A DNA stretch of 37,256 nt, taken from the IMG/VR virus record IMGVR_UViG_3300045988_142508, one strand, 5' to 3'. Positions 1,053 to 33,085 of this stretch are shown here, piece by piece. This DNA comes from a virus. Under the pieces are notes generated by a model. The model ran no database searches, was not told the origin of the DNA, and was given only the letters and a program-made list of their open reading frames with translations. The number at the start of each line of letters is the position of its first letter. The first letter of the stretch is position 1. The translations under genes and the position numbers were made by a program.

Positions 1053-2792
1053 TCACCTTTCTGGTATATCCACATACAGGTCGCCGCTCTTGGGATCCCA
1101 AGTGAACGATGGTGGGCTCGTATTATCCGGATAATTCACATATAGGTCACCGTCGCCTTCCATGCTGAGTGTGAAGAAGCCGTTCGAGGGAGCGGATATG
1201 CCGCTGTCGCCCTTTTCACCTCTTTCGCCCTGCGGACCTTGGATGCCTTGGACTCCTTGTATTCCCTGCTTGCCTTGCGGACCAACCGGTCCGACCGGTC
1301 CTTGCGGGCCGGTGGACCCCGTTAGACCGGTTGGACCTGCGGGGCCTTGCGGCCCTGTAGGACCGGCCGCTCCAGCGTCGCCCTTCTCCCCGCGCAGGCC
1401 CTGCAGACCTTGTGGCCCCTCCGGGCCTGCCAAGCCCTGTGGACCGCGTTCACCGGCCGCTCCAGTCGCTCCTCTGGACCCGGTATCACCCTTCTCGCCT
1501 TTTTCGCCTTGCGGCCCCTGATCGCCTTTCTCACCTTTTGGCCCCTGCGCGCCCTGACCGCCTGTCGGAAGCCCCAGGTTCAGGGTCTTGTCGCTGCCAT
1601 CTCCGGTAAGCGACGCGCTGGCCTGCGCGCCTGCTGCGAGCGTGTCCACCGAACCGATTCTCAGGCCGGTGATGTAGTCGCCTTTCGGCTGCTTGCCCGC
1701 CAACGCCGTATTAAGCGCACCGATGTCCTGTCTGGTCACGTCGGCGCTGAAGGTCCAATTATCAAGCTTGAGGCCGGCTCCCGCGTAGTAGGCGTGTCCG
1801 CCATCCCCGATGGAGGATTCTCCGCTGTTGCCGCCGGCGCTGGCGCCTCCGGATTCGTAGGTGACGGTGAGCACGCCTCCCGAAACCTTGACGATCTTCT
1901 TGGAGATCTCGGCAGTGACGACGAGGCCCGTGTTGTTGTCACGGCCCGTGACCAGGTCGCCAACGTCCGCGTCGATGCCGTCAGGAATGTCCACGTCGAT
2001 GGTGCTGGTGTTCCGAAGTTCCTGGAATTTCTGCCTGCCCTTGTCCTCGAGCTCGTCGGCTTCGGCGTTGGACAACTCGTATGTGGCGGTGCGTTCGTCA
2101 AGCCCTTTGAGTGTCTGCGTGTGGCTGAACGTGCCGTTCGCGTCGGCGTACCAGTGGATGACGGTACGGTCCTTGAGTTCGCCCTTGCCCAGGCAGATGA
2201 GATGGTTGATAGGGTGCGCCGCCTGTTTGGCGGTGAAGTCGATGAGGTCCGAGTCGATGCTGTCGCCGATTGTGCGGACGGGCATGGCGCTCATGGCCAC
2301 CTTGTCGCCGTCATTACGCAACCGGAGTTTGAGTCCGCTTGCCCTGAGCATCTTGACCAGACCGCTGTACAGGTCCACGTACCGGTCGAACCGGCAGGTG
2401 GTCTTGTGGTCGGCGCTTTCTTCGGTGACGGTGAACAGGCCTTGCAATCCCGCACGGCTGACGAGCGTGCGCATGATGACGGGAATCGTGCCGGACAGGG
2501 TGAGGTAATCGGTGTTCCTGTCCGGTTCGATGATCTTCGAGGCGAGCACTCCATGCCAGTCGCGGCCATGCCATGTGACGGCGGACAGGCCTCCGTCCAC
2601 GTCGACATCCGTGTCGTCGATGATGCCGCCGTACTCGGTGCCGTCGATCATGATGCGGCTCCCCGCCTTGAGCGCGGCGTCTTCGACCTGCAGGTCGAAG
2701 TCATTCTCCCCGCTACCGAACGCGAGGTCGAGCGTGTATGAGGCGTGGCTCGCCACGGGTTTGCCTGTGGCGTCGGTGACGATCAGGTCCAT
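1053..2792 (-). CDS. Minor tail protein (ReqiPepy6 Gp37-like N-terminal region) with C-terminal collagen-like repeats, 579 aa
   Basis: The internal ATG at 2792 ([16 protein letters not shown]...) has the SD GGAAAGGAG and overlaps the upstream stop by 10 nt. The longer ORF-track start at 3077 lies inside the preceding gene. About 120 aa are G-X-Y, followed by [14 protein letters not shown]...SGDLY. Confidence 0.8.
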
Positions 2793-3610
2793 GGCGGTTC
2801 GCTCCTTTCCTCGCAGACCGTCAAGTCGAATTGGAATCCTCCCGGCCAGCTGATCGGCTGTGTTCCGGGCGCGAGCGGTTGGAACACGTACCGGCCGGAA
2901 TCCTTGCCCGACCCTCGCACGGCCTGCGCGAAGCAGTTTGTGGCGAGACCTGTGCCGCTGACCATGGTGACGGTCCTGACATCGCCGGTGCCGTCGATTT
3001 CCAGACGCGAGCCGGATGGCACGGTCACGTCGACCTCGTACCGGTTGGTTCCGATGATGACGTACGGGTTTGTGCACGGTCCGAATATCGTGAGCTTGAC
3101 CGGCTGCGGGATGGATGTGTCGTTGACGATCTCGGCACCCAATGCCATGCCGGCGAAATCATGCGGATAATCATATGGATAGTCAAGGTCGGCGGTTCCG
3201 GAATCGTATCGCGGCGTGAAATGCGTCATGGTCGGACGGCGCCACACGCCATCGGCCAGCACGATGGTCAACTGCGTCTCGACCATCGTGGGCGTGATGG
3301 ATTGCGGTTCGCTTTTCGTGATCCACGCTTTGGCTTCCCATTCGCCGTCGGCCACGAGCGTGCCCGGGTTCCCGGATGCCATGTCGGCGTCCGAGAGGCG
3401 GCGCAATAGGTTGAGCGTCTCCGGAGAATCGTGGATCTTCACGGTGATGGTCGTCTCGCGTGTCTTGCGTGCGATGCCCGTGATGCCGCGCGAGACGAGG
3501 CTGTAATCCCAGATGCGGGCGCGCAGTCCGGTGAGTGTCTCGCCATAGAGCGGCCCTTCGAAACCGATCGACTCGCCTGTTGCGCCGCTCACGTAGCTCA
3601 GGGTTCTCAT
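2783..3610 (-). CDS. Distal tail protein (Dit-like phage tail family protein), 275 aa
   Basis: It sits immediately downstream of the tape measure gene (4-nt overlap) and upstream of the tail-tip and fibre genes. Translation MRTLSYVSGATGESIGFEGPLYGE... is typical of siphovirus Dit proteins. Confidence 0.7.
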   Translation of the reverse strand: MRTLSYVSGATGESIGFEGPLYGETLTGLRARIWDYSLVSRGITGIARKTRETTITVKIHDSPETLNLLRRLSDADMASGNPGTLVADGEWEAKAWITKSEPQSITPTMVETQLTIVLADGVWRRPTMTHFTPRYDSGTADLDYPYDYPHDFAGMALGAEIVNDTSIPQPVKLTIFGPCTNPYVIIGTNRYEVDVTVPSGSRLEIDGTGDVRTVTMVSGTGLATNCFAQAVRGSGKDSGRYVFQPLAPGTQPISWPGGFQFDLTVCEERSEPPWT

Positions 3611-6600
3611 GCCACGCTCCTTACGAGTCTTGCGAAGTCACGTTGGGTGAACGGCCGGTCGTCGGCCGTCGCCGCTTCGACGGCTTCGATCAGCGTGTCC
3701 ATCCTGCCGATGACGGTTTCCCATAGTCTGTCGGAATCCGATGGCGTGGCCGTGGTGACGTTCAATCGTCCGGTCTTCGCCCAGTCCGTACCGTCGAGGC
3801 TCATCGAGGAGACGAGCGAGTCCATGGACCGGTTGACCACGGCGGCTGAATCATCGATGCCCAATGCCATGCCTCGGCCGATCATCACGCCGACCTCGTC
3901 ACGCATGAGGCGTGACGGCGAGTGGATGCCGAGTTTGCTTTTGACAGCGGAGATGGCGTCGTTGACGCCGGAGAGCAGGCTCGACGCGATGCTGCCGATC
4001 TTGCTCTGGATGCCGCTGACGATGCCGCTGACGATGTTCGCTCCGATGCTGAGCATGCGGCCCGGCAGGGAGGAAAGGGTGCTGACGATGTTCTGCACGA
4101 ACTGCTTGCCGGCCTGCGACGCCTTGGTCCCCATCTGGGACGCCCAGTTGGCGACGCTGGAGATCGTCGCGGACAGCCAGGAGCCGATTCTTCCCGGCAA
4201 TTGGGCGAGGAACGTGCCCACGCTCGTGAGGAACCGGCTGCCCGCCTGGATGGCCTGCGATGCCATGTTGGAAACCCACGCCGAGGCTGAGGCTACGGCT
4301 CCCGCGAGCCAGCTGGCCACATTGCCGGGCAGCTGGGTGAGGAACGTGCCGACGTTCTGCAGGAACTGCGTACCCATCTGTAGAGCCTGCATGGCCGTGG
4401 ACGACACCCATGCGCCGATGCTCGCGGCGGTCGAGGCGAGCCATGCGGCCACGTTCCCTGGGAGTTGGGTAAGGAACGTTCCGACGTTCTGCACGAATTG
4501 CATGCCCATCTGGAGTGCCTGCGCGCCGAACGCGACCGCGTACAGCGCGATTGACGTGACGGTGTAGCCGAGCCAGTAGGCGATCGTCTCTGGCAGGTTC
4601 ATGATCGCGTTGGCGAGGTTCGTGAGGAACTGTTGGCCTGCCTGCAATGCGGACTGGCCGAGGTTCACGGCCCATGATGCGACGGCCGACGCGGCTCCGG
4701 CGAGCCAGCTGGCGATGTTGCCGGGCAGTTGGTGGAACCATTGTCCGATGCCTTGGATGGCCGACGGGAGCGTCGAGGTGAAGAACGTGACGATGGTCTG
4801 GCCGATAGAGGTGACCTTGCCGACGGTCGCCTGCCAAGCGGATGAAAGGAACGACGTGAACGACGCCCACCACTGCTGTCCGACCTTGGTCTGAGTGAAA
4901 AACCATGTCAACGCGGCCACGGCCGCCGCAGCTGCGGTGATGAACAATCCGAACGGGTTGGCGTTCATCACCGCGGTGAACGCGACCTGCACGGCTGTCG
5001 CCGCCTTTGTGACTGCAGACCATGCGGTCTGCGCGGCGGTGACGATCTTCAGTCCGCCTGCCATCTCCTTCAAGGCCGGGACGATACCGCCCAATTGCAT
5101 CATCAGATCGACCGTCTTGGAAACGCCGGTGGCGGCCGTCGTCAGTGTCTGCGCGCCGGTCGTGACGGCCGATATCGCGGTCGACACTCCCTTCAGTCCG
5201 GCCGAGACGATGTCCCAGCCCTTGACTGCGAGCAATGCGATGGTGATGGCCTTCAACGCGCCGGACACCAGTGCGCCGTTCTGCTGAGCCCACTGTCCGA
5301 CCGACTGCAGCCATCCTCCCACCTTCATGAGCACGCCGGTCAAAGTGTTCAACAGTCCGGCGAAGCTCTGCGCCGCGGAACCGGCGGTGCGCGCGCTGTC
5401 GTTGAAGCCGAAGGCCTGCGAGACCGCGGCCGCCAATCCGGAAACCAGCGAGCCCAATCCGGAGATGACGCCGGTCAGGCTTTCAAGGAACGGCTGCAAC
5501 GCGCCCGTCTCGATGAACGTGTTGACGAACGTCTTCGCCCATCCCGCCGCGTTCGACAACACCTGCGCGACCGAAGCGACCACTCCCGCGAGCGCGCCGG
5601 CGGTTGTGGAGAACATTGTGGCGGCTTCGCCGCCATTGTTGAGTCCACCTATGAGTGATGTGATTGCGTTCCAGAGGCCAGTGAGTTGGCTTTTGAGGCT
5701 GGCCGTCGCCGAGGCGAGCATCTGGAAACCGGGGATGTTGGCTAGTGTGTCGCTGAGGTTTTTGAGTTTCGCCTGTGTGGCGGGTATCGCGTTCTCGAGG
5801 CCTTGTTGGAGTGCCGCGCCGACCTTTTGCAGGGTTGGCGTGACGGCTGCGGTGAATGTGTCGATGAGTGGGATGGCTTGGTTGAACAGGCCGCGTAAGC
5901 CGTTGAGAACTGGTGTGGCGGCTGTTTCTCCGAGTCGGCTCAACGCGGCTTTCACGTTGGCCAGGGCGCCGGTGAATGTGGTGCCTGCGGATAGTGCGGC
6001 TCCGCCTAGGCCTTCCTGCATGGCGTCGGCGAAGGTTTGGAAGTCGATTTTGCCGTCCGAGACCATGTCGGACACTTCGGCGCTGGTCTTGTTCAGATGC
6101 TTGCCGAGCATTTGGAGGACGGGGATGCCGCTCGACATGAGCTGGAGCATGTCGTCGCCCTGGAGTTTGCCTCGAGCGGCGACGGAACCGAAGATCATGC
6201 CGATGTCGGTGAGGCTTCTGCCGCTGATCTGCGCGGTGTCAGCCACGGTCTTGAGGACCTTGGTGAGCTGGTCGCCTTCCTTGATGCCGGACGCTGACAG
6301 GCTGGCCGCGACGGTCGCGGCGTCACCCAATCCGAACGCGGTGCCTTTGACGGAGGCGAGCGCGTCGTTCATGATTTCGGTGACGCTCGCGCTGTCGTGG
6401 CCGAGGCCTTTGAGTTTGGCTTGCGCGTTCTCGATGTTGAGGGCGCGGGTGAAGCCGCCTTTGGCGGCCAATGCGGTGATGCCGCCGGCGAGGGTGGCGA
6501 TCGCGCCTGTGCCGACCTTGCCGATTTTGCCGAATGCCCCGCCGATTTTCGAAATGAGGGTGTTGGAGCTTTTCTTGGAGGCTTTGTTGACGGCGTCGCC

Positions 6601-7539: not shown

Positions 7540-8193
7540 TCACTTGGCGTCTTCAGTGACGAGGCCCCACGCGTGGAACTGCTCGCCCTTGTCTCCCTTG
7601 AGCATCTTGAACGTCATGCTGAAGTTCATGATCTCGCTGGATTTCAGGCTCACGTCGTCGCGGTCGGACACCTTCGAGTTGGTGCCGTACAGGAGGAATG
7701 GGCGGTCCTGCTGGTCGAGCGCGACCAGGACGAGGATCCATTCCTTCTTCAGGCCGGCGCCCTTGATGCTGATGCCGCCGTCGGATTCCACATCCACGTC
7801 GAAGTAGGCGGACACCACGTCCTTGCGTCCCTCCATCGCGGCGAGCTGGAGCGTCCAGTAGCCCGGATCCGTGTCGGACAGGACGATGTCGCCGTTGTGC
7901 GCCTTGTAGTCGGTGCTGTCGCCCGGCTCCGGATGCAGGACGGCGCCGTCCTCGGTGGAATAGCCGATCGGCTTCTTGTTGGACGGCGGCGTCCAGTTCA
8001 CGCCGTCCGGCGCGACGAACGTGCTGTCGCCCTGGGGGAACAGGAACAGCGCGTAGTTCTTGATCAGGCGCACGTTGCCGGAGTCGTTGCCGCTGGACAC
8101 GTACCCGTAGTCGGTCGCCCCCTGCGCCACCTGCGCGCTGGTTTCGGATGCCGTCTGTTCGACGGCGGTGGTTTCTTCGTTGTTGTCGGACAT
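7540..8193 (-). CDS. Major tail protein, 217 aa
   Basis: The internal ATG at 8193 gives MSDNNEETTAVEQTASE.... The upstream part of the 407-aa ORF is Arg/His-rich junk that overlaps real genes. Position upstream of the chaperones supports the call. Confidence 0.8.
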   Translation of the reverse strand: MSDNNEETTAVEQTASETSAQVAQGATDYGYVSSGNDSGNVRLIKNYALFLFPQGDSTFVAPDGVNWTPPSNKKPIGYSTEDGAVLHPEPGDSTDYKAHNGDIVLSDTDPGYWTLQLAAMEGRKDVVSAYFDVDVESDGGISIKGAGLKKEWILVLVALDQQDRPFLLYGTNSKVSDRDDVSLKSSEIMNFSMTFKMLKGDKGEQFHAWGLVTEDAK

Positions 8194-8243
8194 TCGTCCA
8201 TACCTTTCGTTCTTGCCCGTGTGGCGGCACGTCTTGTTGTGTT

Positions 8244-8642
8244 TCAGTTGACGGAGACCTCGAGCAGGAGCACGCCGTACGCGCTCACCAGTCTCTTGTC
8301 CTCGTCGGTCATGCGTACCGGTCCGGATTCCAGTGACGCGCTGATGAGCGGCGCGACGGTTCCGAGCCTGATGATCTCCCTTGCGATGCTGGCCCACAGG
8401 CGGGCGGCCTTGTCCCAGTCGCCCGTATGGTCCTCTTTCATGCAGCGCACGCCCAGCCGCAGTCGCACGTATTGGGAGATGGGAGTGCTCATGCCCTGCA
8501 TGGAGTCGGCCAATGTGGCTTCGGTGAAGGGCGGTTCGAGGTCGTTGCGTTCGATGGTGTCGAACGTCACGTCCGGGAACAGTGTCCTCAGTTTGGGCAG
8601 GAGCAGGGGTTCCGTGCGCCGGGGAGTGACCGGGATGCTCAT
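8244..8642 (-). CDS. Tail terminator / tail completion protein, 132 aa
   Basis: Gene order places it immediately upstream of the major tail gene. It has a 4-nt overlap with the preceding gene. The function is assigned from synteny only. Confidence 0.55.
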   Translation of the reverse strand: MSIPVTPRRTEPLLLPKLRTLFPDVTFDTIERNDLEPPFTEATLADSMQGMSTPISQYVRLRLGVRCMKEDHTGDWDKAARLWASIAREIIRLGTVAPLISASLESGPVRMTDEDKRLVSAYGVLLLEVSVN

Positions 8643-26430: not shown

Positions 26431-27039
26431 TCATGCGTCGGCGAGTGCCGGTTGCTTTTCCGACGCGTTTCGTTTGAGGGCCTTCCTACCGAGTGGGAGA
26501 ATGAGCAGACCCACGCAAAGAAGGGAGGTGAGAATATGAGCAATGGATCCGATTTCGCGAAGGCGAGCGCCGTGTTTGGGAAGGCCGCCGAAACGTCCGA
26601 TCCCGACGAGAGGATGAGAACCCTGTGCCAAGGGCTTTCCCTCCTCGCCAAGGGATTCGATTCGATGGATGCTTCCATGGCATCCGCCGCCTACTGTCTC
26701 GACGTGCTCTCGGATAAGTTCTGAACGGAGTTCCTGCATCTCCGTGCTTAGTCGGTCCGCGGCCTGATTGATGTGCTCGAGAATCGAGCCCATGACTTCG
26801 GTCGTCATGTCGCGGGCCGACAACTGCCGTCTGACCTCGATGCCGATGCCTCGCAGGTCAAGGCTGGACAGGTGGCTCCTCCTGTCGTCGCCCACTGTTC
26901 CGATAACCGTTCGAGCTGGTTCCTCGCGGACGGCTTTCCTTATCGCGCCCAGCATCGCCGGGTGCAGGCGTTCGAACTCCTCAACGGAAATCGGGTTCGT
27001 GGATTCATCCGGTGTCTCGGCCGGAATGTTGATGCTCAT
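26431..27039 (-). CDS. Hypothetical early protein, 202 aa
   Basis: ATG at 27039 with SD AAAGGAGAA. Translation MSINIPAETPDESTNPISVEEFERLHPAMLGAIRK.... It is the first gene after the cro-like gene. The C-terminal half is codon-aligned antisense to ORF 26536..26724. Confidence 0.55.
   Translation of the reverse strand: MSINIPAETPDESTNPISVEEFERLHPAMLGAIRKAVREEPARTVIGTVGDDRRSHLSSLDLRGIGIEVRRQLSARDMTTEVMGSILEHINQAADRLSTEMQELRSELIREHVETVGGGCHGSIHRIESLGEEGKPLAQGSHPLVGIGRFGGLPKHGARLREIGSIAHILTSLLCVGLLILPLGRKALKRNASEKQPALADA
26536..26724 (+). CDS. Small 62-aa helical protein in lysogeny orientation, antisense within the early operon
   Basis: Strong SD AAGGGAGGTGA-N4-ATG. Codons have high GC3 and look host-like (GCC, TCC, AAG, TTC, GAC, CTC). 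Translation MSNGSDFAKASAVFGKAAETSDPDERMRTLCQGLSLLAKGF.... Confidence 0.45.
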   Translation: MSNGSDFAKASAVFGKAAETSDPDERMRTLCQGLSLLAKGFDSMDASMASAAYCLDVLSDKF

Positions 27040-27079
27040 TTCGGATTCTCCTTTCGATTCATGCTTCGGCGAGCGCCGA

Positions 27080-27313
27080 TTACGGTTCTTTTTCTTCTGA
27101 ATTTGCTGCAATGAAGATGTCAAGACCGTCTTGCCATTTCAATGCCGGAGCAATCTTGTCGAGAACGCGGATCGGCCATTCCCGTTGATTGCGCATGTAT
27201 CGATTCATGACGACCCGATTGATTCCAACTGCGTCGGCGACGTCGGATTGAGTGATTCCAAGTCGAGCCATCCTGACTTTTATTGCCTGTGTCACGTATT
27301 CATTGCTTGTCAC
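27080..27313 (-). CDS. Cro-like XRE-family HTH regulator, 77 aa (GTG start)
   Basis: SD GGAGG-N4-GTG at 27313. HTH region: AIKVRMARLGITQSDVADAVGINRVVMNRYMRNQREWP. It is divergent from the repressor gene. Confidence 0.7.
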   Translation of the reverse strand: MTSNEYVTQAIKVRMARLGITQSDVADAVGINRVVMNRYMRNQREWPIRVLDKIAPALKWQDGLDIFIAANSEEKEP

Positions 27314-27472
27314 ATCACCTCCATTCCCCGAATATTCGGGACTTTGTTCGACGTTTACCGGATATTCGGTGAACTTGCTTTCAATGTACTCCCGAATATT
27401 CGGTATGGCAAATTCGACACGCCGAACGGTGTAAAGATGTAACTTCCCGAAAATTCGAATACAGTCATCGCT
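27314..27472. promoter_or_regulatory. Genetic-switch intergenic region with four operator-like palindromes (consensus CCGAATATTCGG)
   Basis: CCGAATATTCGG at 27328-27339 and at 27392-27403 (both perfect). CCGGATATTCGG at 27358-27369. CCGAAAATTCGA at 27447-27458. All lie between the divergent cro-like and cI-like genes. Confidence 0.75.
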
Positions 27473-27868
27473 ATGGATAGCAGCACAACACGCACCGATC
27501 TGGTGATTTGCAAATATATCAGCCAAGCAATGGAAGCCAATGGCATTACCCAGGCCGACCTCTCCAAGGCTCTTGAAGGACGATCAAAAGGTTATGTCAG
27601 CGACCGAGTACTCGGTAAAAGAAGTTGGGCAATCAGCGAGTTAGACAGACTCGCTCCACTCTTTGGGCTTCCGGACGCTCTTTCACTGGTCGCGGCAGCC
27701 TGTGGGTCAATCTCCATCGAGGCCGCCCGCGCCTACGAAGCCCGCGAGCGCGAGTCTCAGATCACCGATGATCTCATCGACCGTATCGCCGCGCACCCCG
27801 AAGACTATGACGTGGCCGCAAACACGGATCCGAACGCACGCCTCGAAGCCGAGACGCCTGACGAGTGA
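27473..27868 (+). CDS. CI-like XRE-family HTH repressor, 131 aa
   Basis: HTH region: ISQAMEANGITQADLSKALEGRSKGYVSDRVLGKRSW. No SD lies upstream of the ATG, so a leaderless or weakly translated mRNA is possible. It is the first gene of the plus-strand lysogeny operon. Confidence 0.75.
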   Translation: MDSSTTRTDLVICKYISQAMEANGITQADLSKALEGRSKGYVSDRVLGKRSWAISELDRLAPLFGLPDALSLVAAACGSISIEAARAYEARERESQITDDLIDRIAAHPEDYDVAANTDPNARLEAETPDE

Positions 27869-27887
27869 TGGATTGAAAGGAACACGA

Positions 27888-28592
27888 ATGACCGAATACA
27901 ACCTGTATTGCGATGAAAGCTGTCATCTGGAACATGACGACAGCGACGTGATGGTCCTTGGAGCCCTCATTATCCCCAAGGATAAAAGGCAGGAAATCAC
28001 AGAGAATATTCTCCAGATCAAGGCACGTTACGGTGTCAAGGCACGCACGGAAGTGAAGTGGACGAAGGCCAGCATGCCGAAAATCGACCTGTACAAGGAT
28101 TTGCTGAACTGCTTCTTCCTGGATGACGACATGAGGTTCCGTGTTCTGGTGGCCAAGAAGACACGTCTGAATCATGAGGCATGGTCCCAGTCACACAACG
28201 ATTGGTACTACAAGATGTATTTCACCATGCTGAACAGGCTGTTCGATTCCACGAACACCTACAACGTGTACGTGGACATCAAGGACACGCACTCCGCGCA
28301 ACGTACCGAGAAACTGGAGGAAGTGCTAGCAAACAGCCACTACGACTTCAACCACGAATGCATCAAGAAAGTGCAACCAATCCGTTCAGACGAAGTGCAA
28401 ATGATGCAAATCACCGACGTGATCAACGGAGCCGTATGCAGGGCGAACCGGACGACCATCCCCCAACCATCAGGCGCGAAAGCTGAAATCATCGACTACA
28501 TACGCATGAGATCAAAGCTCCGACTCACCCAGTCAACGACCTTGGGCACGCGCAAGTTCAACATCTTCGTCTGGGAAGGACGGAACGCATGA
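27888..28592 (+). CDS. DUF3800-family protein, 234 aa
   Basis: SD GAAAGGAA. N-terminus YNLYCDESCHLEHDD, the central ...TEVKWTKAS..., and the C-terminal QMMQITDVINGAV fit my recollection of the DUF3800 pattern (xYxDESG ... KW ... QxxDxxxG). G+C is lower by eye than the structural genes. Confidence 0.7.
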   Translation: MTEYNLYCDESCHLEHDDSDVMVLGALIIPKDKRQEITENILQIKARYGVKARTEVKWTKASMPKIDLYKDLLNCFFLDDDMRFRVLVAKKTRLNHEAWSQSHNDWYYKMYFTMLNRLFDSTNTYNVYVDIKDTHSAQRTEKLEEVLANSHYDFNHECIKKVQPIRSDEVQMMQITDVINGAVCRANRTTIPQPSGAKAEIIDYIRMRSKLRLTQSTTLGTRKFNIFVWEGRNA

Positions 28593-29119
28593 CACCGCAT
28601 TGGACACCGGAGCTCGTAACCAAATCCCCGATAGAAGACTTTGCCGTATATGAGGATAGGATTTATGCAATCTTCAGACATGACTTCATAGATTCACATC
28701 CATCATTCGACGGCCTCAGAGTTTCCGTACGCCGCCAGAAAGAGGAGACCGACGGAAAATGGGCTGGGTTTTTCCACATCACCAGCGTCGAAGACTACAC
28801 AACCGGCGAGAGGAATGTCGATCTGCGTAGATGTGAGCGGATCAGGTTTCCACGGAAGACGATTGACAACGCAAAGGATTGTCCGCAATGCCATTATGAG
28901 GTATGTGATGCGCCATTAATCTGGAGGAAGCATAAGCATGGCCGCGATAGGTTATATATCCTCATTGAATCAGAACGGTATCTAGTCGTGCTGGAACCAC
29001 ATAAGGACAGAGGCTACTGCATGTTGGTCACCGCCTACTACGTCGACCATGATCACAGCTTCAACAAACTTCTGAAAGAATATGATCAGTCAAGTTTGAA
29101 CGGGAATTGCGTTCAATAA
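28589..29119 (+). CDS. Uncharacterised 176-aa protein translationally coupled (ATGA) to the DUF3800 gene
   Basis: ATGA overlap at 28589-28592. CPQCHYEVCD motif. C-terminal region RYLVVLEPHKDRGYCMLVTAYYVDHDHSFNKLLKEY. No family recognised. AT-richer by eye. Confidence 0.7.
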   Translation: MTPHWTPELVTKSPIEDFAVYEDRIYAIFRHDFIDSHPSFDGLRVSVRRQKEETDGKWAGFFHITSVEDYTTGERNVDLRRCERIRFPRKTIDNAKDCPQCHYEVCDAPLIWRKHKHGRDRLYILIESERYLVVLEPHKDRGYCMLVTAYYVDHDHSFNKLLKEYDQSSLNGNCVQ

Positions 29120-29275
29120 AAAGCAAGGGCCGCCGCAGCGACCCTGGAGACTCCTTCTACAACTCGGTAGATGAGCTGATTCAAGCATCACATACGACAC
29201 TCCAACTGTCAAGCAGAACTTGACAAACAGCAAAAAAGTACTTCTCGAAAAACAATACTTTCGGAAGAGAGGAAT

Positions 29276-29683
29276 GTGGATAACAAGACCATCGCGGAGC
29301 TTCACCGGAACGCGGAATCCATGGGTCTGTCAGTCATGTCACGCGACCTTCCCCGTGACATATGCGGCCTATACGACGATCGACACAAACTCATTCTGCT
29401 GGCCGACTGGCTCAACCAGCGCCAGCGCCGTTGCACGCTGTGCCATGAGCTCATCCACGCGAAACACCACGATCCAGGCTGTGGTAGCCAATACGGGTTG
29501 AAGTGCGAGCGCCGGTGTCGCAGGGAGACCGCGCTGGCGTTGATCAGTCCCGTGGACTATGGCATGGTGGAGCAGATATACGAAGGCAATACGTGGATGA
29601 TGGCCGTGGAATTGGGCGTCACCATCCAAGTACTGTCGGACTATCGGCAGCTGTTGTACGATTCCGGCGTGTGCGTGCAATAA
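29276..29683 (+). CDS. ImmA/IrrE-family (DUF955) zinc metallopeptidase, 135 aa (GTG start)
   Basis: HExxH motif in CTLCHELIHAKHHD. The small size and its position in the repressor/integrase operon are typical of ImmA anti-repressor proteases. Confidence 0.75.
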   Translation: MDNKTIAELHRNAESMGLSVMSRDLPRDICGLYDDRHKLILLADWLNQRQRRCTLCHELIHAKHHDPGCGSQYGLKCERRCRRETALALISPVDYGMVEQIYEGNTWMMAVELGVTIQVLSDYRQLLYDSGVCVQ

Positions 29684-29840
29684 AAGAAGCTCAGCGTCCA
29701 CATACCGCGACGGGAAACAAAAAAGGGTCCCGCCCGAACACAGTCGGACGGAACCCAAGGAACCAACAATCAGCATTTCCGTTTTCACCAAAATGAGGTT
29801 CCACGCACAGTGTAGCGCGGATCCTCGGAAAGAGACAACC

Positions 29841-31121
29841 ATGGCCAGAGCGTTCGTAGACGACAGATGGCTCAAAAACGACGAGGACGGTAACCCACCC
29901 AGCAGGGCCGCGAAACAGTCGCTGGCCAATGCGAAGGATCCGATGAAAGCCAATGTGCCCGGCAAATGGCGGTCCGCGCTGTACGGCCAAGGCTCACGGT
30001 GGAGATGCCGCTGGTACACGCTTCGAGACGGCAAACGCGTCCAGAAATCACGGAACTTCGCCAAGCTCCGTGACGCTGAGGAATACGCAGCGGCCATCGA
30101 GGACGACATCAGACGCGGCAAATACCGCGACCCGCAGCAGGAACTACGCATCTTCCGGGACGTTGCCTCCGAATGGACGGACGGCAAGATGGATATCAAA
30201 CAGGGCACTTTGGGCAGATACCGCCGCGAATTGCGCGTTTATATCAACCCCAAGTGGGGCGATCGCACACTGAGGGAAATCCAACGCGACGAACTGCAAC
30301 AGTGGGTCACGCAGCTCACCGAAGGCGGGTATCCCGCCGAACTGCAGGACGATCGCGAATCGAAGCCATTGAGTCCACGCAGCATCCGCAACATCGTCAA
30401 GGTCGTCATGGGCGGTGTCATGGAATTCGCTTTGGAGCACGGCTGGATCGGAGAGAACCCCATTGAAAAGGTCACCGTGCCGCGCATCACGCAATCCGAT
30501 GACGACATGGTGTTCCTTACCGTCGAGGAGGTGGAGTTGCTGGCCGGCATGGCCGAACGGGCAGGACGGCCGGTAGACGGGCTGATCGTCCGCTGGCAGG
30601 CATACACCGGTGCCCGCATTGGCGAGACGCTGGCACTCAAATGCGGCGACGTGGATGTGGAATCACGCAGGGCGCGCATCCGCCGCACTTGGACCGACGA
30701 CGGCAAAGGCAGTCTTGTGCTGGGCACGCCGAAGAACGGCAAACCGCGCAGCATCGCCATACCCAGATTCCTCATACCGTCCATCGAACGGCAGATGGAG
30801 GGCATGGGCGACGACGACTGGCTGTTCCGCGCGGCAAGAGGCGGGAACCTGTGGACGAACACGTGGCGGACGCGTGTCTGGCGAAAGGCCGTCCGACTGG
30901 CCGGCATGGAGGACGAGGGCGTGACCATCCATAGTTTGAGGCATAGCTATGCGAGCTTTGCGATTGCTCAAGGCGCAGACGTGAAGACCCTACAGATGCA
31001 GCTCGGCCACTCCTCACCCAGCATCACGCTGAACACATACACGGCTCTCTGGCCGGAACGATTGGACGATGTGGCGGACGCGATTGGCGAGCTGCGCGCT
31101 GAACAGTTGAAGACCGTCTAG
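29841..31121 (+). CDS. int: Tyrosine integrase, 426 aa
   Basis: ATG at 29841. Catalytic boxes YTGARIGETLAL (R) and HSLRHSYASFAIAQGADVKTLQMQLGHSSPSITLNTY (H-x-x-R ... H ... Y). The attP follows immediately. Confidence 0.92.
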   Translation: MARAFVDDRWLKNDEDGNPPSRAAKQSLANAKDPMKANVPGKWRSALYGQGSRWRCRWYTLRDGKRVQKSRNFAKLRDAEEYAAAIEDDIRRGKYRDPQQELRIFRDVASEWTDGKMDIKQGTLGRYRRELRVYINPKWGDRTLREIQRDELQQWVTQLTEGGYPAELQDDRESKPLSPRSIRNIVKVVMGGVMEFALEHGWIGENPIEKVTVPRITQSDDDMVFLTVEEVELLAGMAERAGRPVDGLIVRWQAYTGARIGETLALKCGDVDVESRRARIRRTWTDDGKGSLVLGTPKNGKPRSIAIPRFLIPSIERQMEGMGDDDWLFRAARGGNLWTNTWRTRVWRKAVRLAGMEDEGVTIHSLRHSYASFAIAQGADVKTLQMQLGHSSPSITLNTYTALWPERLDDVADAIGELRAEQLKTV

Positions 31122-31140
31122 ACGCGGAGGTTGCGCGGTC

Positions 31141-31160
31141 ATCGTGTCGAATCGTGTCGA
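31141..31160 (+). repeat. Two tandem copies of ATCGTGTCGA (arm-type integrase binding site candidates, P arm)
   Basis: Exact 10-mers at 31141-31150 and 31151-31160. The same 10-mer occurs twice more at 31382-31402 on the other side of the core. Confidence 0.6.
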
Positions 31161-31169
31161 TAGCCTACG

Positions 31170-31213
31170 GCCAAGAAAAAATAAAGCCTTGGAAACATAA
31201 TGTTTCCAAGGCT
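31170..31213 (-). terminator. Rho-independent terminator (minus strand) abutting the tRNA 3' fragment
   Basis: 13-bp perfect stem AGCCTTGGAAACA-TAA-TGTTTCCAAGGCT (31185-31213). On the minus strand it is followed by TTATTTTTTCTT. Confidence 0.75.
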
Positions 31214-31216
31214 TCC

Positions 31217-31255
31217 GGTCGGGCTGACAGGATTTGAACCTGCGACATTCTGCTA
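31217..31255 (-). other. attP core: 3' portion of a tRNA gene (T-arm plus acceptor 3' strand)
   Basis: The minus strand reads ...GTCGCAGGTTCAAATCCTGTCAGCCCGACC, which is T-stem/GTTCAAATC loop/acceptor. It lies between int and the lysis genes and is flanked by the arm repeats. Confidence 0.7.
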
Positions 31256-31381
31256 TATTCGGGCATGGCATGACTGAGCGTAGCCGGGTGTGAGCATTGT
31301 CAAGAACGTTGAAATTCCAACGTTCTTAACAATACGATACGCAGTGGTTCGCTTTGTCGAAATTAACTGTTCGCAACTGTC

Positions 31382-31402
31382 ATCGTGTCGATATCGTGTC
31401 GA
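31382..31402 (+). repeat. Two further copies of ATCGTGTCGA (P' arm), plus a degenerate third (TGTGGTCGA)
   Basis: Exact 10-mers at 31382-31391 and 31393-31402, in the same orientation as the 31141 pair. Confidence 0.6.
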
Positions 31403-31429
31403 TGTGGTCGAACCGCGCAGCCTTCCATC

Positions 31430-31476
31430 GGAAAATGAAAAAGTCCCCTCCCCCAGCATAGAAGCTGAGAGAGGGG
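31430..31476 (-). terminator. Rho-independent terminator after the holin gene
   Basis: Minus strand CCCCTCTCTC-AGCTTCTATGCT-GGGGGAGGGG followed by ACTTTTTCATTTTCC. Confidence 0.7.
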
Positions 31477-31505
31477 CGAGTGCGAGTCTCACGTCAGAAA
31501 ATTAA

Positions 31506-31751
31506 TCACTGGCCGTCCTCGTCGGCCTTGACAGACGTGAGCTGGCTCACGCCGATGAGCGCGCCGACGAACAAACCGATCGCGTTGATGGTCGTAACGA
31601 GTTCGCCGCAATGCGGCAGTCCCCATTGCGGGCCGACCGCACCAACCAACCATGCGATGGCCGGCAAAGCGATCAACGCGAGCCACTTGAGTATGTCGTA
31701 TACCCTGCCCGGCAGCAGGTAATCGGATTTCGGACTATTGGATTCATCCAT
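31506..31751 (-). CDS. Holin (LL-H/Phage_holin_1-like), 81 aa
   Basis: Strong SD AAGGAGGTGA. YDILKWLALIALPAIAWLVGAVGPQWGLP...AIGLFVGALIGVS gives two TM helices. It is adjacent to the endolysin gene. Confidence 0.75.
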   Translation of the reverse strand: MDESNSPKSDYLLPGRVYDILKWLALIALPAIAWLVGAVGPQWGLPHCGELVTTINAIGLFVGALIGVSQLTSVKADEDGQ

Positions 31752-31816
31752 TTTTCACCTCCTTAAACATTGCGGCAACCGTCTCCACAACGCTTAAAGT
31801 CGTGGAAACGGGAGTT

Positions 31817-33085
31817 TCAGCGCAGGTACTGTCCGGGATAGATAACGTATGGGCTGCGGATGCCATTGCGTGCGGCAGCCGACTGCCAGCCGGAGCCGTA
31901 GATGCTCCAAAGGCTTTCGCCGGAACGGACCACATGGCCTCCGACCCCGCTCGAAGCGATGGACACGGACGCGCCGCCATAGGTGACGATCTGCCCCGGA
32001 TAAATCCTGTTGACGTCACCGCTCGGCACACGCCAGGCGGACACCGGCTTCAGGCCGGTGCGTTCGGCTATGGCGCACATGGTGTCGCCGGAACGGACCA
32101 CGACGCTACGCGAACCCGTGGCGGCCGTTCCGCCGGAACCTCCGCCGAGGCGACTGTTGACGATCTGCATGACCGCCGCGTAATTGCCACCCAACACCTG
32201 CCTGCGGGCCGGATCATTGCCGAAATCGCCGCGGATGGTGCGCGTGGCCAAAGCGTTCAGGTCGACCGCCGGAGCGGTCGTTGGCTGGGGCTTCGGCTTG
32301 ACACTCGGCAGATCCGCCGCGCCCTTGTCGTCAGGGTTCGCGTACTTGCGCCATGCCGCGCGGTCGCCACGGAACTTGTTCAGGTCGAGGCGTCCTGACC
32401 AGCCGCTGAGACTGCCGTTGGACGTGTACTGCCTCATCACCTCGCCGCGCGCTCCGATGTTCCACGGGGCGGTCTGATAGCCGGTGACCATGTTCGTGGC
32501 GTACTGGGCGATCCAGATGCCGCAGTTTAGTTCGGTCTCCATGCCGGCGACCTGCCAGTAGCCGGAGTCCATCGTGTAGATGATGGGGTTCACGCCCGTC
32601 AGTCGCTTGACCTCGCGCGCCCACCTGCGTGGCCACTGCTTGTCGCCCCAGGCGGCGTTGTCCTGCGCCTCCCAGTCGAGGATCAGGACGCTCTTGTGCA
32701 CGTATCCGCGCACATTGTCGACGAAGAACCGGGCTTCGGTCTCCGGGTTGCCTCCGCGCGCGTAATGGTAGATGCCGGTCTCCTTACCACTGTTGATGGC
32801 TCCGGCGAGTTGTCGGTTCGCGTCGGTGTTGACGCCGTTGGACAGGCAACCACCGTACACGCCGCCGGATCCCCATGTGGTGCCGACGATGACGAAATCT
32901 GCCGGCACGGTCGCGGTGTCGATGCCGCACTGCCAGTTCGAGATGTCGTATCCGTTCATATCGGCCATCGCGGCCGGCGCGACCGCCATGGATATGGCGA
33001 CCGCGAGCGCGGTCAGTAGCTTGCGCCATTGTCGGCGTGGATTCATGCGCTTGTGTTTCGGCTTGCCTTTGTTGAGGATGTTCAA
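31817..33085 (-). CDS. Endolysin: N-terminal signal/SAR sequence, GH25 muramidase domain, two C-terminal LysM repeats; 422 aa (TTG start)
   Basis: Signal-like RRQWRKLLTALAVAISMAVAPAAMA. GH25-like GYDISNWQ...ADFVIVG...DWE. LysM-like VVVRSGDTMCAIAERTG...RIYPGQIV and HVVRSGESLWSIYG...VIYPGQYL. Confidence 0.88.
   Translation of the reverse strand: MNILNKGKPKHKRMNPRRQWRKLLTALAVAISMAVAPAAMADMNGYDISNWQCGIDTATVPADFVIVGTTWGSGGVYGGCLSNGVNTDANRQLAGAINSGKETGIYHYARGGNPETEARFFVDNVRGYVHKSVLILDWEAQDNAAWGDKQWPRRWAREVKRLTGVNPIIYTMDSGYWQVAGMETELNCGIWIAQYATNMVTGYQTAPWNIGARGEVMRQYTSNGSLSGWSGRLDLNKFRGDRAAWRKYANPDDKGAADLPSVKPKPQPTTAPAVDLNALATRTIRGDFGNDPARRQVLGGNYAAVMQIVNSRLGGGSGGTAATGSRSVVVRSGDTMCAIAERTGLKPVSAWRVPSGDVNRIYPGQIVTYGGASVSIASSGVGGHVVRSGESLWSIYGSGWQSAAARNGIRSPYVIYPGQYLR

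Follow-up and report, generated by a model that had tools for sequence, protein, structure and literature searches.

Bacteriophage P1 carries two overlapping genes, rlfA and rlfB (P1_gp051 and gp052; rapB is the P7 homologue of rlfB), directly after the kilA-repL lytic replicon. The P1 record names gp051 'DUF3800' and gp052 'replication protein, possibly associated with lytic replication', and annotates an operator of the C1 repressor between repL and rlfA, beside the lytic replicon and oriL. The same protein pair is listed in PADLOC as the phage defence candidate PDC-M04. Here, we describe a gene pair of this family at positions 27888-29119 of the viral contig IMGVR_UViG_3300045988_142508, a stretch of 37,256 nucleotides referred to below as the window. 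The pair was accompanied by a small RNA gene, and we are highly confident that an RlfA-type protein, an RlfB-type protein and this RNA make up a conserved three-part architecture. P1 and the window share the gene order, the overlap between the genes and the small RNA; the P1 pair follows a lytic replicon, whereas the window pair follows a cI-like repressor gene in a lysogeny module.

PDC systems are 145 candidates chosen because their genes lie inside BREX, DISARM or type I restriction-modification loci (Payne et al., bioRxiv 10.1101/2024.01.29.577857), and PDC-M04 is cassette CAS_00034 in the table of that study. Its definition comprises two proteins only, so that both the RNA and copies of the RNA without proteins fall outside it. 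A literature search returned no paper naming PDC-M04 and none testing it for protection against phage. DUF3800 proteins are also found in other settings. Type VII retrons, which are candidate defence systems, likewise link an RNase H2-like DUF3800 protein to a structured non-coding nucleic acid. In clustered regularly interspaced short palindromic repeats (CRISPR) loci, TPR-DUF3800 proteins with Cas12a2 or Cas12a3 and Csx32 with Cas13 are accessory components of immune loci, several of which act on transfer RNA (tRNA). A preliminary description of the window considered DUF3800 to be without established function; this has to be qualified, as the family has a recognised RNase H2-like fold and serves type VII retrons and, as an accessory, CRISPR systems. 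The DUF3800 RNA motifs I-XI (Weinberg et al. 2017, PMC5737381) are structured RNAs lying by DUF3800 genes in either orientation, several with intrinsic terminators. Type III toxin-antitoxin systems (ToxIN) serve as our working analogy: there, a small RNA restrains a nuclease that acts by abortive infection, and phages can escape by carrying their own copy of the RNA.

The two protein genes of the window were located as follows.

27888-28592, plus strand: gene 1, RlfA-like DUF3800 protein of 234 amino acids, predicted RNase HII-like nuclease fold
28589-29119, plus strand: gene 2, RlfB-like protein of 176 amino acids, without a Pfam family

The open reading frames (ORFs) confirmed the arrangement given in the preliminary description, two genes coupled through an ATGA stop/start overlap (28589-28592) and oriented like the neighbouring cI, immA and integrase genes. 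Both proteins matched the PDC-M04 models over their full length, adjacent and on one strand. Gene 1 aligned with PDC-M04A (PDLC04353; E 1.6e-86) through residues 1-232 on profile positions 1-229 of 232, and gene 2 with PDC-M04B (PDLC04356; E 3.9e-90) over residues 1-176 of 176. BLASTP comparisons gave 43% identity between gene 1 and P1 RlfA (E 5e-70) and 35% between gene 2 and P1 RlfB (E 6e-18). Gene 2, which had been thought impossible to assign to any family, was thus a homologue of P1 RlfB; it also fell into PHROG 16230, labelled 'replication protein'. The locus thus belongs to the P1 RlfA/RlfB family, identical to PADLOC PDC-M04, a protein pair already catalogued as an uncharacterised candidate. 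The pair is very widespread and is present in a model phage.

Gene 1 matched Pfam DUF3800 (PF12686) at E 3.4e-15 and 57.5 bits (cutoff 21), in agreement with the YCDES and QxxD patterns from which it had been recognised. Among 43 homologues, the DE (D9, E10) and QxxD (Q174, D177) motifs were invariant, and D130 and D133 completed a set of six invariant or nearly invariant residues. An AlphaFold2 model (predicted local distance difference test score, pLDDT, 87) found its best Foldseek matches in archaeal RNase HII and human RNase H2A (E 2.8e-6, probability 1.00); the top structures were 1eke, 3p83, 1io2 and 3puf, with template modelling (TM) scores of 0.45-0.53. Published DUF3800 modelling likewise arrives at an RNase H2-like fold and describes a rearranged site. 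The conserved acidic residues may lie where an RNase H-type active site would be, and gene 1 is a predicted nuclease. Sequence comparison with solved structures, using single sequences and profiles, yielded no match or chance matches only, and no solved RNase H was matched. NCBIfam gave no match to either gene. DUF3800 relatives of the gene 1 subfamily number thousands. In a Legionella transposon screen, one strain-specific DUF3800 gene (HL77S_00079) came out as essential, which is how antitoxin genes behave; it may or may not be of the RlfA subfamily, and we mention it as a lead towards toxin-antitoxin-like behaviour.

Gene 2 belonged to a family of about 1,995 representative clusters in an exhaustive profile search. 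The best 150 relatives listed were all stand-alone proteins of about 160-180 amino acids, so that domain fusions offered no clue to function. H63, R81, W112 and T148 were invariant in the family and an RCERI motif was nearly so. The CPQC...C cluster (C98, C101, C106) highlighted in the preliminary description is real, but it is an insertion specific to one subclade and is absent from most family members. The AlphaFold2 model of gene 2 had a pLDDT of 93.9. Foldseek found nothing significant for it in the PDB, where the only matches were weak, partial and RelE/HigB-like, the best partial match being RelE 4fxh_B (probability 0.84, E 0.2, 52 columns). In BFVD, the sole significant match was one uncharacterised phage homologue. 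Single-sequence and profile searches against solved structures returned no relevant match, and Pfam at E <= 10 across 59 homologues returned scattered weak matches only, among them one homologue matching the PBECR2 nuclease model at E 0.014. In the model, residues 79-170 form two helices, four strands and one helix, and a RelE/ParE-like topology of the C-terminal half is a lead rather than a finding. Gene 2 was split over two reading frames in L022, L057 and L072, with the DUF3800 gene intact; this could be pseudogenisation or sequencing error. The core of the small RNA in L072 was also broken, by an insertion.

Conservation of the pair was examined by searching one genome per species with a DUF3800 alignment. 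The search returned at least 579 loci, of which the best 80 species loci were analysed. These came from Fibrobacterota, Firmicutes, Actinobacteria, Spirochaetes, Proteobacteria, Bacteroidota, Chloroflexi, Nitrospirota and other phyla, with 45-55% identity to gene 1. A gene 2 homologue followed the gene 1 homologue directly and on the same strand in 79 of them, the exception being a contig end. The overlap was 4 bp in 44 of the 79 loci, and most of the others had short overlaps or gaps of a few bases. The pair is therefore conserved as a unit, in the same order and on the same strand, and its listing in PADLOC as a phage defence candidate is independent of our analysis; both had been proposed as checks on the preliminary description. 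Immediate neighbours included genes for Methylase_S (type I specificity; 8), N6_Mtase (methylase; 5) and HsdR-type proteins (restriction; 6-7), as well as for other restriction-modification enzymes, helix-turn-helix (HTH)/S24 repressors, recombinases and integrases. Overall, about one fifth to one quarter of the loci adjoined type I or other restriction-modification genes, which agrees with the cargo or defence-type setting suggested for the pair.

The cassette had been thought to consist of two genes and to end at 29119. A small RNA gene lying just beyond this point, with a promoter reaching about 29212, belongs to the module as well. Its parts in the window are listed below.

29119-29180, minus strand: two-hairpin small RNA gene of about 62 nucleotides, the sole window match of covariance model R1 (55.1 bits, E 2.8e-15)
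29150-29177, minus strand: hairpin 1 (AGCUCAUCUACC...GUAGAAGGAGU), nhmmer E 1.8e-6
29126-29145: hairpin 2, a GC-rich stem-loop between the convergent gene 2 and small RNA, with a terminator-like score on the minus strand
29184-29212, minus strand: putative small-RNA promoter read from the sequence, TTGACA at 29212-29207, a 17-nucleotide spacer and GATGCT at 29189-29184

The U-run that follows hairpin 2 on the RNA strand overlaps the stop codon of gene 2. Comparison across phyla gave 457 significant pairs for the 300 nucleotides 3' of gene 2, against 80 for the 300 nucleotides upstream. The conserved unit reads, in order, a TTGACA-N17-TATAAT-like promoter, about 6 nucleotides, (U)AGCUCAUCU(A/G)C, a variable loop, GUAGAAGGAGU, a linker of 4-6 nucleotides, the GC-rich hairpin and a U-run. 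The stem and flanks of hairpin 1 were nearly invariant from phylum to phylum, the loop varied, and conservation of the RNA across phyla was about 90% at the nucleotide level. An nhmmer search over 1.40 Mb gave 84 matches at E<=10, and the best match per locus lay within about 200 nucleotides of the gene 2 stop or overlapped the 3' end of the ORF. Covariance model R1, run on 84 sequences totalling 1.27 Mb, returned 81 matches at E <= 9e-7, one per source in 81 of the 84 sequences, and none elsewhere in the 1.27 Mb. It missed L047 and L055, both contig ends, and L014. P1 itself carried an R1-matching copy, convergent to rlfB, at a place where nothing is annotated.

The predicted structure was supported by covariation. 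In 70 distinct sequences of hairpin 1, 96.2% of cells were paired and five of the nine pairs had changed on both sides; none of 500 shuffles reached the observed values, and slid controls were 35-61% paired. RNAalifold predicted both hairpins from 30 full-length copies. In hairpin 2, the C-G, G-C step was invariant and the next pair was U.G in 19 of the 30. The unit was convergent to gene 2 in most loci, hairpin 2 there serving both transcripts; in 13 Firmicutes and Synergistota loci it was inverted as a whole, promoter and terminator included, and stood behind gene 2 in the same direction of transcription. Promoter-like boxes stood at a fixed distance upstream of the RNA in most loci, in both orientations. 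Since promoter and terminator move with the element, an RNA gene is favoured over a DNA site. No family matched the RNA in a gathering-level Rfam 15 scan of the window and of 20 loci, and a scan of 29090-29290 at E <= 10 gave no relevant match, the tRNA model included. Comparison with the DUF3800 motifs was made through the Rfam 15 models only; Rfam 15 holds at least DUF3800-I and DUF3800-IX, and RF02969 and RF02968 are among its DUF3800-associated families. There is a slight chance that the RNA is one of the motifs I-XI. As far as these tools tell, what is new is a small RNA that obligatorily accompanies the pair, is extremely conserved and also leads a life of its own in phage genomes.

Some features of the RNA are recorded here as observations. 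In several loci, it was antisense to the 3' end of the gene 2 ORF rather than placed past the stop (L036, L038-L040, L044, L046, L053, L056, L059, L061 and L063 from Collinsella; L003-L007 and L010). Antisense regulation of gene 2 as the conserved function was rejected, the 13 co-directional loci having no overlap. The 3' arm of hairpin 1 holds a Shine-Dalgarno-like GAAGGAG; a role as leader for a small ORF was rejected, no start codon following this motif in the sequences inspected. The outer part of hairpin 1 (UAGCUCA...A(G)GAG(U/C)) has what we take to be canonical tRNA D-arm sequence (U8-A14, A21-C25), a likeness that we treat as a lead. An example of a D-arm sequence is UAGCUCAGUCGGUAGAGC in E. 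coli tRNA-Phe.

The RNA also occurred without the proteins. When IMG/VR was searched with a pattern for the hairpin 1 core, at least 120 viral contigs matched; among the 120 listed, 53 encoded RlfB (46 of these both proteins) and 67 encoded neither, so that the RNA stands alone in at least 67 viral contigs. RNA-only copies sat between co-directional phage genes, and clustering of the neighbours of 54 distinct loci revealed no protein family common to them. In 10 of 39 RNA-only loci tested, the RNA lay within about 500 nucleotides of same-strand tRNA genes in phage tRNA arrays. The array copies are those of the IMG/VR contigs L095, L101, L112, L114, L118, L157, L160, L166, L170 and L202, with neither RlfA nor RlfB in the DNA fetched. 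After some RNA-only copies, a second, diverged tandem unit (GCUCAUGUACC...GUACAAGGAG) was present (L104, about 3296-3400; L162, about 1050-1125), and its inner stem carried compensatory changes relative to the first unit. Among GenBank phage records, 32 contained the RNA core (P1, P7, Bbif-1, SPbeta-like phages such as phi3T, and Vibrio, Geobacillus and Streptococcus phages) and only 9 contained RlfB (P1-like phages, P7 and Bbif-1). In phi3T, the copy (L214 3001-3028; KY030782 49058-49085) consists of the core and terminator hairpin in an unannotated gap between phi3T_55 and a yonK homologue; no RlfB homologue was found in phi3T or other SPbeta-like phage genomes.

In the window, the module occupies a cargo slot between the following lysogeny genes.

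27473-27868, plus strand: cI-like HTH repressor gene (weak HTH_3 match, E 5.5e-4; PHROG repressor families)
29276-29683, plus strand: ImmA/IrrE-type M78 metallopeptidase gene (Peptidase_M78, E 6.3e-7; PHROG 87, E 3.6e-17)
29793-31121, plus strand: tyrosine integrase gene, on the strand of the gene pair

The stop of the cI-like gene is 19 nucleotides from the start of gene 1, and no terminator was found in that gap. The cI-like gene is the left border of the slot and probably the first gene on the transcript of the pair; immA is the right border. Related Bifidobacterium phages carried other contents at the same place. The contig L083, 99.5% identical to window 27871-31247, had an extra DUF4236 gene in the slot. 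Phage Bbif-1 had a diverged allele of the pair, annotated 'RlfA phagic protein', with flanks 71-90% identical to the window. The sister phage L186 (IMGVR_UViG_3300045988_057778) encoded near-identical cI C-terminal region, immA and integrase proteins according to its ORF translations; in its slot (2816-4690), the RlfA/RlfB pair was replaced by DUF4236 and the PADLOC candidate PDC-M24 (DUF6978 plus DUF1828/1829, ATGA-coupled), and the small RNA was kept intact at the junction with the PDC-M24 cassette. PDC-M24 proteins were found beside the small RNA in L186 only. A third kind of cargo was present in phage ctl617 (L092, Siphoviridae sp., OY725605), where a RhuM-family gene (PDC-S05; 2363-3367) overlapped the start of an immA gene with 81.6% nucleotide identity to that of the window. 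The cI-immA slot of Bifidobacterium prophages is thus a hotspot where one candidate defence cassette is exchanged for another. The suggestion that the pair is a moron with a defence role draws its best support from this pattern of variable cargo, which is guilt by association only.

The base composition of the pair was also in line with the preliminary description, which had noted it as AT-richer than the rest of the phage. Its GC (guanine plus cytosine) fraction was 0.495, against 0.594 for the window (standard deviation 0.035 in windows of equal size), placing it at the 0.3 percentile; all eight of the lowest-GC windows of its size overlapped it. Low GC was also seen in the neighbouring cro-like gene and in intergenic regions.

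Several described systems resemble the module and differ from it in definite ways. The Q of the QxxD motif is invariant in the gene 1 family and is not conserved in retron DUF3800 proteins, and the RlfB partner is absent from type VII retrons. No reverse transcriptase was present beside the pair or among the genes called on a 13-kb stretch of a sister contig, and no retron RNA family was detected. As reverse transcriptase and msr/msd RNA are both missing, the locus is not a retron. CRISPR-associated DUF3800 proteins are fused to TPR or encoded in CRISPR operons, and none is reported with RlfB or with the RNA described here. Type III toxin-antitoxin systems have a tandem-repeat RNA upstream of ToxN, whereas the RNA of the module is a single unit downstream of the genes, mostly convergent, with its own promoter, and the module has two proteins. 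No repeat family of the RNA-antitoxin type was found in 26900-31900 and Foldseek gave no ToxN-like structural match; the RNA being no repeat array and a ToxN fold being absent, the module is not a type III toxin-antitoxin system.

Our best guess is that the module is an RNA-controlled nuclease system acting in phage exclusion or abortive infection, and we put the probability of this at about 0.42. The cassette would be the version of a three-part mobile module carried by prophages of Bifidobacterium adolescentis. The RlfA-type protein, the coupled RlfB-type protein and the small RNA may form a ribonucleoprotein, in which the RNA would restrain the nuclease activity or give it specificity, much as an RNA antitoxin does. 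Riding on the repressor transcript, the pair would be made in the lysogen; infection by another phage would then upset the balance, and the released nuclease would block the invader or kill the cell. For phages that have the RNA alone, often in tRNA arrays, the RNA may be a counter-measure, as pseudo-antitoxins are against type III toxin-antitoxin systems. Expression in the lysogen, proposed in the preliminary description, is plausible for the window, but it is not a property of the family because P1 has a C1 operator just upstream of the pair; in the window, the operator-like palindromes lie upstream of cI instead (27327-27458).

A number of points weigh against a nuclease module for phage exclusion. 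Genome-wide CRISPR interference in P1 classed rlfA and rlfB as non-essential and dispensable for plaques, and the position of the C1 operator by the lytic replicon of P1 suits a role in the lytic cycle better than a defence expressed in the lysogen. In no member of the family has defence, toxicity or RNA binding been demonstrated by experiment. The small RNA lacks the tandem repeats of known RNA antitoxins, and the window copy can fold hairpin 1 in another way that is slightly more stable. Gene 2 resembles RelE only weakly, with the Foldseek and PBECR2 values given above (E 0.2, and E 0.014 in 1 of 59 members). Because the RNA is kept in L186 beside an unrelated cassette, it could also be part of the backbone of this phage group.

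Much of the same evidence could be read as selfish addiction, in which the pair and the RNA would be a toxin-antitoxin-like cassette stabilising itself and its host element, with no anti-phage role. The tight coupling and strict co-inheritance of the three parts, their presence on the P1 plasmid-prophage and on integrase-bearing islands, and a very wide horizontal spread with 45-55% protein identity across phyla would all fit, as would the essential Legionella DUF3800 gene if it is of this subfamily. We nevertheless regard addiction as rather unlikely as the whole explanation: the embedding in restriction-modification loci and the allelic exchange with candidate defence cassettes suggest a conflict with phages, addiction hardly accounts for RNA-only copies in phages without the two genes, large tRNA-array phages among them, and many such modules do both jobs in practice. 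The name rlf and the PHROG 16230 label suggest another reading, a replication-linked phage function in which RNA-DNA hybrids or primers would be processed during lytic replication, as RNase H does at ColE1-type origins. In P1, the pair stands directly after kilA-repL and oriL with the C1 operator between repL and rlfA, gene 1 has an RNase HII-like fold, and rlfA and rlfB are among the P1 replication and processing genes whose induction after infection was altered in an hfq mutant. The label, however, traces to the position in P1 only, and the link to replication genes is not conserved, the pair lying in a lysogeny module in the window and beside restriction-modification genes, repressors and recombinases in the 80 species. 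Many loci lie on chromosomes without a phage replicon in the vicinity, and knock-downs in P1 gave no plaque defect. We consider this function improbable.

The element at the 3' border might, alternatively, be no partner of the proteins at all, and combine a bidirectional terminator with a conserved boundary sequence, at which cassettes would be exchanged by recombination or which would act in cis on neighbouring genes. It sits exactly at the border of the cassette, the join with the unrelated cassette in L186 falls at its 3' end, and RNA-only copies lie between co-directional phage genes. From just upstream of the gene 2 stop through immA, element included (29114-29710), the window is about 82-85% identical to Bbif-1, while the cassette alleles differ. 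This explanation appears very unlikely. In both orientations, the element comes with a consensus promoter, placed at a constant distance, and with a U-run terminator. Hairpin 1 is preserved through compensatory changes, and hairpin 2 retains a specific U.G pair. Conservation of about 90% across phyla is far above what a terminator needs, and 81 of 84 sequences have a single copy for each module. The least probable of the readings is one of counter-defence or RNA repair, in which the module would help the phage to withstand host systems cutting tRNA or other RNAs, the RNA serving as a decoy and the nucleases processing damaged RNAs. The RNA copies in phage tRNA arrays and the company that DUF3800 proteins keep with tRNA-cleaving CRISPR effectors (Cas12a3 and the Cas13 kinase system) suggest it, and so, as a lead, does the presumed D-arm likeness of hairpin 1. 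Most copies of the module are chromosomal or in restriction-modification loci rather than in phages, though, the tRNA model had no match to the RNA, and no repair domains of the ligase or kinase type are linked.

Returning to the RNA-controlled nuclease module, its boldest form would make it a new class of two-protein nuclease immunity module, whose RNA borrows a tRNA D-arm-like helix and is carried by SPbeta-like and large tRNA-rich phages as an anti-defence decoy. We hold this form to be doubtful; if true, the decoy would give a function to the RNA-only copies in tRNA arrays and a first testable role to DUF3800. The RNA-only phage copies suggest an arms-race layer that is itself testable, and the module can be tested directly in E. 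coli with P1 parts. Two-gene constructs that end at the gene 2 stop, following the PDC-M04 definition, would truncate the terminator and lose the RNA, which changes how the module should be cloned. The finding may also help to explain what DUF3800 contributes to type VII retrons and to the accessory operons of Cas12a3 and Cas13.

Exact copies of both window proteins were present in at least 1,000 contigs, from Bifidobacterium (B. adolescentis and relatives) wherever the source names one. As identical proteins are recorded from B. adolescentis and its relatives, the window represents a common gut Bifidobacterium prophage. Upstream of the slot lay one further feature of the lysogeny region.

27327-27458: palindrome CCCGAATATTCGGG of 13-14 nucleotides in four copies, in the interval from the cro-like gene (minus strand) to the divergent cI-like gene (plus strand)

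The CCCGAATATTCGGG copies are probably the operators of the genetic switch. Directly after immA, a 13-bp GC-rich stem-loop (29725-29756) has its T-run on the minus strand, as does the one after gene 2, and may stop antisense transcription into the lysogeny genes. No tRNA gene was present in the window. Between the integrase gene and a convergent lysin gene (31138-31404), GTCATCGTGTCGA/ATCGTGTCGAT occurred in three copies, together with two near-perfect palindromes at 31184-31214 and 31296-31333; these repeats and palindromes are likely to represent integrase arm-type sites, a terminator and the attachment region. Finally, genes or fragments with a SocA/Panacea antitoxin domain were seen near the module in Bombiscardovia (L002 9380-9607) and in a Bifidobacterium-type island (L084-L091, at about 4186-4710 or 8109-8633), which also has a DUF1828 gene, immA and an integrase.

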